A stretch of DNA of 55,074 bases, the filler included, from Dimargaris cristalligena (lineage: Eukaryota): NCBI GenBank assembly GCA_003614675.1. It is 2 parts of 2 records of this genome, joined end to end, with 100 filler letters (N's around TTAATTAATTAA, not from the genome) between each part and the next. Parts side by side here need not be neighbours in the genome. Positions count along the whole stretch, not along the records: positions 27,589 to 55,074 come from ML002519.1; 1 more part is not named here. One strand, written 5' to 3'. Below, one piece after another: positions 29,943 through 34,413 of the stretch. How positions within the stretch are numbered: the first letter of the stretch is position 1; each line of letters begins with the position of its first letter. The translations under genes were made by a program, and so were the position numbers. A model generated the notes under the pieces. The model did no database searches. It was given only the letters and a program-made list of their open reading frames with translations, and was not told the origin of the DNA.

Positions 29943-31674
29943 ATGTTGCGCTCATTCCTCCCCACTCGTCTTCACTCCATAGACCCTTTAGTTCGTACAA
30001 GGTGTACTCCACACTTGTTGTCTCTGCCGCCCATTGGACTTGGTTTGACTCCCAAGGTCTCATTGTATCGCACTGCCTCACTGTCCTGTTTCTTACCTTG
30101 GTCTGACACCCCACCACCACTACTAACACCGGTTTTATCCTCGACCCGTTCCTTTACCACTGTCAGCTCTCCTGCGAATACCTCCTCTTTCCAGCAACTA
30201 CGTACCTCACAGTCACCATTGGCATTACCACCTCTGTCTTCTCGAGTCTCCCTTTGGGCCCATTGCGTCAGACCCGCCGCAGCAACTCCCCTCATTCACC
30301 CCCCGCACCGTGCTCAACTATCGACCATGTCCAGCTCGCAGTCCCTCGAAAAGGTCTGCATCATCGGCTCCGGCAATTGGTAGGTTGGCCCGTCTCTAAA
30401 AGAAAAGTCCGAATGGCGTGACTGGTATGGCCGCTAACTCCCAAGTCCATACTTAGTGGCCTGGGCCTTCTATACAGTGACTGGTTCAAATCCGGTACTT
30501 TATTGAGACTGATTTCCCGACTATCCCCCACCCCACACACACAGAGAGAGAGAGGCAATCTATCCAGGGCCATATTTAACCACTGCCCCACTTTATCACC
30601 ATCACTATTACCATCCATAGGGGCACCGCTGTAGCCAAAATTGTGGGCAATAATGTCACCCGGTTCCCCCATATTGACTCCAAGGTGATGATGTGGGTGT
30701 TTGAAGAACAGGTAGACGGCACCCCTTTGACCGAGGTCATCAACACCCGCCACGAGAATACCAAGTACCTCCCAGGTATTCAGCTTCCCGCCAACGTGGT
30801 AGCGGAGCCCAACCTGCTTAAAGCCGCCCGGGACGCCACCCTATTGATATTTGTTCTGCCCCACCAGTTTATCCGCCACACCTGCGTAGAACTCCGCGGG
30901 CACATCCGACCCAACGCCAAGGCCATTTCACTGGTGAAGGGCCTGGATACCCACGACGGCGGCCTGGATTTAGTGTCCAACGTCATTGCCGACGAACTCA
31001 GCAAGCCCTCGGGCTCCTCATCCACCAATGGCAACGGCCGGACGGATCGGCTGGATGTCAGTATCCTGAGCGGCGCCAACATCGCCAACGAAATCGCCCA
31101 GGAAAAATTCAGCGAAACCACCATTGGGTACCGCATTGAACAGAACGGCCGGTTGTTCCACGACCTCTTCAACACTTCCTACTTCCGCGTCAACATCGTC
31201 AACGACCCCAGCGGCGTCGAACTCTGCGGGGCATTAAAGAACGTCGTTGCGTTAGGGGCCGGTTTCGTCGACGGGCTCGACCTGGGCGACAACACCAAAG
31301 CCGCCATCATTCGCATTGGGCTGATGGAAATGATGCGCATCGCCCAATACGTCGACCCGTCCGTCCGGGACGCCACGTTCTTCGAGTCGTGCGGCATTGC
31401 CGATGTCATCACCACCTGCTACGGCGGCCGGAATCGGCGCATCGCTGAAGCGTTCGTGCGGACCGGCTTGCCCTTTGATGATCTGGAAAAGGAAATGCTA
31501 AACGGCCAGAAGTTGCAGGGCACGTCGACGTGTTTGAAGGTGTGCCAGTTTCTGCGGGAACGCCAGTTAAGTCAGGAGTTCCCGTTGTTTACGACCATTT
31601 ACAATATTTGTTTCCAAGGGTTGCCGCCCGACCACATTACGCAATTCCCCTTGCCCCATCTCTCCAAAATGTGA
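29943..31674 (+). CDS. GPD1: NAD-dependent glycerol-3-phosphate dehydrogenase; exon 1 from ATG 29943 (496 aa) or ATG 30327 (368 aa) to 30379, exon 2 30621-31674
   Basis: KVCIIGSGNW/GTAVAK spans the intron; HENTKYLPG, FVLPHQF, LSGANIANE, VELCGALKN, LGDNTKAAIIRIGL, TTCYGGRNR, LNGQKLQG. Ends in SKM*. Confidence 0.95.
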
Positions 31675-32475
31675 GTGAATGAGAGTTAGTTAGTTAATTA
31701 GTTAGCTAGTCTGACTGGCTTCGCTTTTGACGACTGTGCTTTTTTAAAAGAAAGGGAGAATTATTCCCGACGTCGGGTTTACTGCAGTGCGAATTTTGCA
31801 TATTACGGCCAATCCCAAATATGTCGAATAAATTGTCCGTATAAACCCCCCACATTCAGACCGATTCTAGAGTGGTTGGCAACGGATAGGAATGACACTC
31901 CAAACCTGGAAGGGGAGGGCGGTGGAATCCGAGTGTTTGGGAAGTCTATCTCTGCAACGATGACTAATATGCTCGATTTGCCAAGCATTTCAGTGGCATG
32001 AAAATTATGGACAAGTGGGGGAGGCAATACCGGATTAGCTACAATTATATCCAAACGTAATAAGAAACGACTCAAGGGATTTGGGCCGAGCTGTGGGTGT
32101 CTACGGCACAGGGTTTATCCTTAGCGGCGGGGTGTATTCGCTCGCCTACCCCCCTCCCCTTTACTTTACTCTACCTTTACTAATATACTGCCCCCTTTAT
32201 CCTACAGAATAATGGCATCTATAGCCACAACTGGGCTTAGTCACTTACTTCAGTGCATGCCGGAGTTTACAAGGCGTACGATGCATCGGGGATAGAGAGT
32301 GACCTCAACTCTCCTACACTCTAATCTGATGTGGCTCGGCCATATCACCCTCTCGCTCACTCGCTCACTCACTCGCTTGATTGTCTCCTCTGAACTGTAT
32401 TTCTTAGGGACTGTCTGCCGTGTCGGTATGGCGTTCATATACCAATGGACGTAGTAATAAAGTAGTCATTGTGTG

Positions 32476-32967: not shown

Positions 32968-33147
32968 TCCTGTATGTTTGCCATACGATCCCTTCTGTCT
33001 GCCCCCTACCCCAATCCTTTTTCTGCCACCCGCTTCTCCTCTCTAGTACCCACCGTAGTTCAACCCCGCCGGCTGGTTCTATTCCTAGCCGCATTAACCA
33101 TCGTCTCCCCGCTATTAACCTCCGCGCAAGCACCGGCCCCAACCGCC

Positions 33148-34413
33148 ATGGATTTGCTTAAAACCCAGACTCAGCTGTCACTTTCCGAATTGCGTAACAC
33201 GCTTATTCGACTTGAAGACACTATCATTTTCGGTAAGTCTGCCTCCGCTTTTTGCGGTGGTTACCATAAATACAAGCATCCCCTGATATCCTTGTACCCT
33301 ATCTGGAAATTAGGGGGCAGGTTGGCCCACTGCTACCCCCCCCCCCTTTCCTCCCCGCTAGAGAGGCACCGCCTTTATTGAACGCCTCTTTTTTAGCCCG
33401 GCCATTTCAATTATATTCCCAAATTATATGGTCAAGGTGATGGTGGCGTTTGGTGGCGCCATCCTTAAAATAACCCCCTGCTAATTCTATCAATCCCATG
33501 GAGAGCCATGATGAGCTAACCAAACTACCATACGCGTAACCTGTAATTAAATGAAATCTGCCCTTTCCTCGCCCCCACTATTATTGTCTCCCCCCCCCCC
33601 TTGTGATCAGGTCTCATCGAGCGGGCCCAGTTCAAATCCAACGACATCATCTACCAACAGGGCGCCTTTCACTTCGACAATGGCTTCACCGGCTCGTTCC
33701 TCGAATACCTAATCTGGGAGCTCGAAAAAGCCCACGCCAAAGTCCGGCGCTACCAAAGTCCCGACGAATACCCTTTTACCCCCGCCGACCACCAACCTCC
33801 ACTCCCGGCGCCTATCCTCCCCGCCCTGGACTATCCGCCCATCCTGCACCCCAACCACATCAACATTAATGCCCAAATCCTGACCATGTACACCGCCTCC
33901 CTAATCCCCCAGGCCTGTGCGCCGGGTGACGATAGCAATTACGGTTCATCCGCCACCAAAGACGTCGAATGCCTCCAAAACCTGTCCAAACGGATCCACT
34001 ACGGCAAATTCATTGCTGAATCCAAATTCCAGGATCCCCAGTACCACGACCAGTACGTGCAACTCATCAAGGCCCGGGACGCCAAGGGGATTTACCAGCT
34101 GTTGACCAACGAGGCCGTCGAACGGAAACTGCTTCGGCGGTTACGGCGGAAGGCGACCATCTACGGGCAGGATATCGACGATGATGATGGTGATGATAAT
34201 CAGTCCCCGGCCACTACCACTACTGCCCCCGTCCGGCATTCGACTGATACTAGTCTGCCCCAGACGAATGGAACAGCCACGGCCACGGCGACTGCGAACG
34301 CTGCTGGTCCGTCTAAAATTAGCCCCGATGTGGTAGTGGATTTGTACGAGAAATACGTGATCCCGTTGACTAAACAAGTTGAAGTGGATTATCTGCTGCA
34401 ACGACTCGATTAG
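33148..34413 (+). CDS. ARO7: Chorismate mutase, eukaryotic AroQ type (295 aa); exons 33148-33232, 33611-34413; possible upstream in-frame ATG at 32974
   Basis: LSELRNTLIRLEDTIIF/GLIERAQF, VRRYQSPDEYPF, NYGSSATKDVECLQNLSKRIHYGKFIAESKF, VIPLTKQVEVDYLLQRL. Confidence 0.96.

Follow-up and report, generated by a model that had tools for sequence, protein, structure and literature searches.

A weak PTS1-type tail and a stop-overlapping donor motif on the GPD gene of Dimargaris cristalligena

The single GPD gene of Dimargaris cristalligena encodes a protein ending in SKM, a probable weak PTS1, and its stop codon lies within a donor-like GTGAGT hexamer. We examined both in a window of 55,074 nucleotides (the whole stretch of DNA analyzed, two joined records with filler). 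The explanation we favor, and consider likely though not secure, is leaky Pex5 import of one unspliced GPD-SKM protein that feeds cytosolic and peroxisomal shuttles. The gene would give one main unspliced mRNA and a protein with an SKM end, the low-affinity signal would let Pex5 import part of GPD into peroxisomes while the remainder stays cytosolic, and a single gene would in this way supply a glycerol-3-phosphate shuttle in the cytosol, together with Gut2, and an NAD(H) shuttle in peroxisomes that supports beta-oxidation. The stop-overlapping GTGAGT would then be idle, or spliced at noise level only. What we observed is the sequence itself, its single copy, a tail kept across relatives, and genes for Gut2, Pex14 and acyl-CoA oxidases; we infer that Pex5 binds the tail, that import is partial, that the enzyme serves a shuttle and that splicing does not occur. 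Were a weak PTS1 on GPD indeed to run through the whole lineage, the peroxisomal glycerol-3-phosphate redox shuttle would extend to these mycoparasites, the Dimargaritales, through a PTS1 instead of the PTS2 of yeast, a modest addition. More useful may be a by-product of the analysis, namely that GPD stops appear to double repeatedly as PTS1-adding donors in fungi and arthropods, with a PTS1-bearing added exon of GPD overlooked by gene callers.

A protein search and a family search of the D. cristalligena genome each returned one GPD match. The gene model (+ strand) agrees with RKP37248.1, a protein of 368 residues, and consists of exon 1 (30327..30379, start ATG at 30327-30329), an intron of 241 nt (30380..30620, GTAGGT...TAG) and exon 2, which runs through the stop (30621..31674). 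This intron is typical of the genome and its 3' score exceeds that of 63/73 predicted introns. PF01210 (residues 9-190; 145 bits) and PF07479 (residues 213-358; 151 bits) both match above curated cut-offs, and the PF07479 match ends at residue 358/368, which places SKM beyond the folded domain on the basis of the domain match. The protein cluster of this GPD has 2 members, both with an SKM end and both with unspliced models. An in-frame upstream ATG would extend GPD by 128 residues (29943-30326), and this extension opens with an Arg/Ser/Leu-rich stretch resembling a mitochondrial presequence. Use of the upstream ATG is doubtful because the extension has a negative coding score (-9.0) and a TATA-like run lies so near, only ~20 nt upstream of the ATG. 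GPD is flanked in the window by a PF01984 gene upstream (~28086) and by a chorismate mutase gene after it (32974-34413); a Dispira simplex model (P0123) is a GPD fused to chorismate mutase, which points to a conserved order of these genes and to an erroneous join in the model.

The terminal tripeptide (TCCAAAATG; 31663..31671, + strand) is followed directly by the TGA stop (31672-31674, + strand) and closes a tail 7 residues longer than the end of the GPD measured in five other early-diverging fungi. SKM fits the PTS1 motif quoted in a passage of PMC10526880 and is a documented weak PTS1 in the portion of PMC4874748 consulted, in line with the original prediction, which had called it a PTS1 variant. 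In the Dimargaritales, each of the 4 species whose model is full-length, drawn from three genera, carries a 7-8-residue tail that ends in a PTS1-like tripeptide: SKM in D. cristalligena (2 records), SKI in Tieghemiomyces (2), TKL in Dispira simplex and NKL in D. parvispora. The Lys at -2 is kept, and the residues ahead of the tripeptide are unconserved. Measured from the FPLF motif to the C-terminus, the Dimargaritales proteins have 31-32 residues vs 24 in the GPDs of those five early-diverging fungi. Most early-diverging fungal GPDs among the 120 homologs listed end directly after the last helix, and a PTS1-like end was present in 12 of these 120 homologs (8 by a strict and 4 by a loose pattern). 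Canonical SKL was found in 0/4 Dimargaritales species with complete models, and each of the four endings departs from it by a single residue, as would be expected if import stays partial; four distinct departures of this kind suggest selection for partial import. A PTS1 on the D. cristalligena GPD is probable. The models of D. verticillata and D. xerosporica (P0008, P0125) are ~32 residues short and were left out of tail scoring. Both end just ahead of the FPLF motif, and their last exon was probably missed at an intron.

A close functional parallel for the tail is human soluble epoxide hydrolase (sEH), which has the identical SKM tripeptide. According to the parts of PMC4874748 available to us, sEH binds Pex5 more weakly than an SKL protein would and resides in both cytosol and peroxisomes, a dual location that arises from the low-affinity signal and to which oligomeric state contributes. 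It differs from the Dimargaris protein in being another enzyme from another kingdom, and the fungal GPD is known from sequence. We propose that the low affinity of SKM would likewise allow only part of GPD to be imported. The D. cristalligena genome has a Pex14_N match and three acyl-CoA oxidases, two of them with canonical AKL ends. It also has one DAO_C/Gut2-like gene and, given a single GPD, a cytosolic pool would be needed. A PTS1 end was found on 0/3 MDH/LDH-family ORFs of this genome. One MDH without an obvious presequence (L023, G000:C1370) ends in ASK-TAG, and readthrough would lead to ASL, which is not a standard PTS1. The PGK gene (L168, G000:C178) stops at TGA, where readthrough would add nine residues with a PHL end, a loose PTS1 pattern. 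TGA is the rarest stop among the predicted gene ends here (11/89). Readthrough of the GPD TGA itself was rejected, as it gives VNES and then a stop rather than a PTS1.

The putative donor, GTGAGT (31671..31676, + strand), spans the wobble base of the final Met codon and the TGA stop. Re-reading the sequence, we recovered the SKM end, the TGA, this hexamer, the CTGAC and the AG-free stretch as the original prediction described them, and splicing out 31671-31750 in silico gave the peptide it had claimed, a 30-residue extension with an LSV end. Its description of the donor as perfect holds for the generic consensus but not for the exonic -1 base, which is T, nor for this genome, where GTGAGT is rare as a donor. 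Introns were predicted ab initio by a gene finder trained on 855,074 bases (800 kb of the genome plus the window) with a generic prior on donors, a neutral one on acceptors and one for short introns, giving an unfiltered set of 271 and a filtered set of 81 with strongly coding flanks. The predicted introns have a median length of ~200 nt, which is long for a fungus, and CTRAY peaks 40-59 nt before the acceptor. GTGAGT opens 0/81 filtered and 3/271 unfiltered introns (one convincing by eye), and GTAAGT opens 39/81 of the filtered set. When coding-to-noncoding transitions were scored without a donor prior, GTGAGT gave 10/333 vs 11/566 for control hexamers (p=0.36), and GTAAGT gave 65/462.

The GPD site scores 3.8 bits, above 16/73 predicted donors, and a donor of at least this score occurs within the last 30 nt of 4/89 predicted gene ends, a background that excludes GPD's own end. 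Since ATG followed by TAA or TGA already fixes four of the six donor bases, the GTGAGT on this stop is probably mostly a by-product. The chance of GTRAGT in this position is ~3.4% given a final Met (68/89 x 4/89) and ~0.9% for any gene; GTRAGT lay at the stop of 0/89 predicted gene ends, though gene-finder bias may have lowered this count. Measured against chance, the donor at the GPD stop is mildly unusual. Folding of the RNA around it gave z = -1.39, with 15/200 shuffles folding as well, and a structural switch is unsupported. Ile codons never end in G, so the SKI end of Tieghemiomyces cannot hold a donor in the same register; the Leu codons of Dispira are compatible with a GT donor there. 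Of the two elements whose conservation the original prediction had put forward as a check, a PTS1-like tail is present in 4/4 species and the donor is not conserved in this register in Tieghemiomyces.

Downstream of the donor, the 3' half of the proposed 80-nt intron has the character of an ordinary 3'UTR, because its 3' signals are matched at ordinary gene ends, its exon scores non-coding and that exon contains AATAAA. The CTGAC branch-like motif (31711..31715, + strand) lies in a (GTTA)n-rich 3'UTR, and the same simple pattern follows 9/89 ordinary stops. AG is absent from 31711-31748, and several AGs upstream of CTGAC end at 31693-31709. The proposed AAAAG acceptor (31746..31750, + strand) has a 3' score of 3.2. 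The branch and acceptor together score above 10/73 predicted introns, whose own scores are optimistic because the same introns served to train the matrices, and the 3' score is equalled within 130 nt at 36/89 ordinary gene ends and within 450 nt at 83/89. Predicted acceptors are AAG in 9/81 cases and AAAAG in 0/81. With respect to length, 73/81 filtered introns measure 131-437 nt and none measures 65-98 nt, and 10/130 unfiltered GTAAGT introns are at most 102 nt, including introns of 70, 79, 92 and 93 nt. The distance from a CTRAC branch to its acceptor is 39-106 nt in this genome, and since branches lie far from acceptors in D. cristalligena, the 37 nt of the proposed GPD intron is borderline; CTGAC accounts for 2/25 CTRAC branches. 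The hypothetical third exon (31751..31844, + strand; 30 codons, ending in LSV and TAA at 31842-31844) has a coding log-odds of -10.7 in the spliced frame. The AATAAA within it (31827..31832, + strand), a possible poly(A) signal, lies 10 nt before its stop; AATAAA occurs within 400 nt of 39/89 predicted gene ends. The best-scoring downstream acceptor is a CAG (31857..31859, + strand; 189-nt intron) with a score of 5.2 and a poor branch. An acceptor as good is found at 69/89 ordinary gene ends, and the spliced product likewise lacks a PTS1.

Judged from sequence, the GPD stop codon is a recurrent splice donor. We scanned the best 80 of 181 metagenome GPD loci, dropping 14 3'-end duplicates and 2 without a stop in view; 21 of the remaining 64 were set aside by eye (C-terminus apparently incomplete, mostly with the frame entering an internal intron) and 43 were kept. 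In 18 of these 43, GT lies across the final codon and the stop, and stops of the form G+TAA/TGA are followed by GT in 9/17, far above chance. In-silico splicing to a branch-bearing AG gave a strict PTS1 in 7/18 GT loci vs 0/25 without GT; in these seven (L121, L123, L125, L132 [stop ~2752], L122, L156 and L092) removal of 62-258 nt would add SKL, ARL or SRL. As L121, L123, L125 and L132 share one conserved SKL exon, the loci are non-independent and represent about four events. With the conserved L121 added exon as query, 5 proteins were retrieved, all unspliced ab initio ORFs and none joined to GPD, which add further instances of the conserved tail. Crustacean GPD isoforms either end at the Met of HPEHM or run on to SKL, and L089 and L090 have GTAAGT at that position. 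A similar arrangement exists in Drosophila Gpdh. The metagenome and crustacean genes resemble Dimargaris in bearing a donor that overlaps the final codon and the stop (in crustaceans at the equivalent Met of the alignment) but differ in that splicing would give SKL, ARL or SRL to a signal-less protein, and every splice that altered PTS1 status in the scanned loci added the signal. The recurrence of this donor raises the prior for splicing in D. cristalligena. The final Met of D. cristalligena (31669-31671) lies 31 residues past FPLF and aligns gap-free with the animal HPEHM Met (P0116, P0127, L089, L090). This shared position is probably convergence, and homology with the arthropod donor was rejected because five other early-diverging fungal GPDs stop 7 residues earlier. 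No Dimargaritales DNA was present among the best 80 of 181 loci (best identity 56%), and a short-protein search with the GPD C-terminus gave 15 matches, none named Dimargaritales and none above 57% identity.

Both a peroxisomal location of GPD and peroxisomal isoforms produced by splicing are already known (passages in PMC3798809, PMC9549241, PMC10526880, PMC8124512, PMC12316961). The Gpd1 proteins of S. cerevisiae and Debaryomyces hansenii are peroxisomal NAD-dependent GPDs of a redox shuttle (excerpts of PMC3798809, PMC9549241, PMC10526880), and they use an N-terminal PTS2, phosphorylation-regulated in S. cerevisiae, unlike the C-terminal PTS1 of Dimargaris. Ustilago maydis GAPDH and Aspergillus nidulans PGK have cryptic PTS1 isoforms (Freitag 2012, as cited in parts of PMC3798809 and PMC12316961). 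These genes share with Dimargaris GPD the supply of peroxisomal and cytosolic isoforms from a single metabolic gene, but their PTS1 is hidden and the isoform minor, whereas the PTS1 of Dimargaris GPD is overt in the annotated protein. For MDH, splicing adds the PTS1 in A. fumigatus and L. starkeyi, and in Aspergillus fumigatus, Lipomyces starkeyi and Yarrowia lipolytica retention yields the cytosolic form, a conserved device backed by RNA-seq (sections of PMC7491326); the polarity would be reversed in GPD, a case known from its sequence. Judged by title and start of abstract in mostly non-subscription full-text literature, no report addressed GPD targeting in Dimargaritales or a PTS1-removing splice at the GPD stop. 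The portion of PMC4207609 available has 0 occurrences of 'glycerol' or 'GPD', and those of PMC9133605 and PMC3493640 contain no relevant passages.

The original prediction had combined tail and donor into a peroxisomal switch, in which retention gives the SKM-ended peroxisomal form and splicing from 31671 to 31750, or alternatively to 31859, gives the cytosolic form, an explanation we regard as unlikely. Dimargaris would on this account invert the usual device, with a weak regulated intron on the stop stripping the signal from a default mRNA that is peroxisomal, which seems to us doubtful, and the site that adds a PTS1 in arthropod and other fungal GPD genes would here have been put to use independently and with opposite polarity, a proposition to which we give little credence. 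If true, splicing that takes a PTS1 away instead of adding one would be a new twist on a known mechanism. Retained introns often have weak splice sites. A donor that is mildly improbable (~3.4% given the final Met; 4/89 ends), the recurrence of stop-overlapping donors in GPD with a strict PTS1 in 7/18 GT loci vs 0/25, a branch-acceptor gap of 37 nt that falls only just under the 39-106 nt range, an AAG that ends 9/81 predicted introns and two compartments to be supplied from a single-copy gene all speak for such a switch, and A. fumigatus MDH also has an AAG acceptor (within the portion of PMC7491326 consulted). That the donor is within the predicted range, that strong donors are rare at gene ends and that GPD stop donors recur counts against leaky import. 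The switch nevertheless has to contend with 0/81 introns for both GTGAGT and AAAAG, with a 65-98 nt range empty of filtered introns, and with a 3' score that exceeds only 10/73 introns and is equalled by 83/89 ordinary ends within 450 nt. Its new exon is non-coding with AATAAA 10 nt ahead of the stop, its donor register is impossible in Tieghemiomyces, and the seven PTS1-changing GPD loci and the MDH cases have the opposite polarity; moreover, an abundant cytosolic form would be needed, although the two models in the database are both unspliced. The PTS1 half of the original proposal is supported by the conserved tail and by published SKM behavior, but the switch half is weakly supported because donor type, length and acceptor context are atypical and the 3' signals are at background. 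A functional splicing switch at D. cristalligena GPD is more probably absent than present.

The remaining alternatives concern the signal itself. SKM might be a non-working PTS1, leaving GPD cytosolic, perhaps in part mitochondrial via the upstream ATG, with tail and donor incidental. The nine residues ahead of SKM lack Lys/Arg, TKL and SKI are non-canonical, and most other early-diverging fungal GPDs among the homologs listed are tail-less; but four different PTS1-like ends in three genera, on a tail otherwise unconserved, together with the peroxisomal GPD known in yeasts, make an inert SKM quite improbable. Least probable, and very much so, is that the 31671 donor splices to a stronger or different PTS1 end, as in GPD and MDH genes of other fungi. 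It would have the polarity of L121, L122, L123, L125, L132, L156, L092 and the crustacean isoforms, yet single-intron routes to a PTS1-like end exist via 4/50 AGs before the next gene, and those four all give SKI with introns of 23, 31, 35 or 888 nt. The 23-35 nt introns yielding SKI were rejected as too short. Leaky import of a single unspliced GPD-SKM protein accordingly stays our preferred explanation.

Two of the scanned loci, L126 and L135, have GPD ends where GTAAGT overlaps the stop and a shared TTGAC is followed by two acceptors in tandem, spaced by 4 nt. The proximal acceptor restores the stop, and in L135 the distal acceptor opens a frame of more than 400 codons, which we take to resemble a ThiF/MoeB-family protein.
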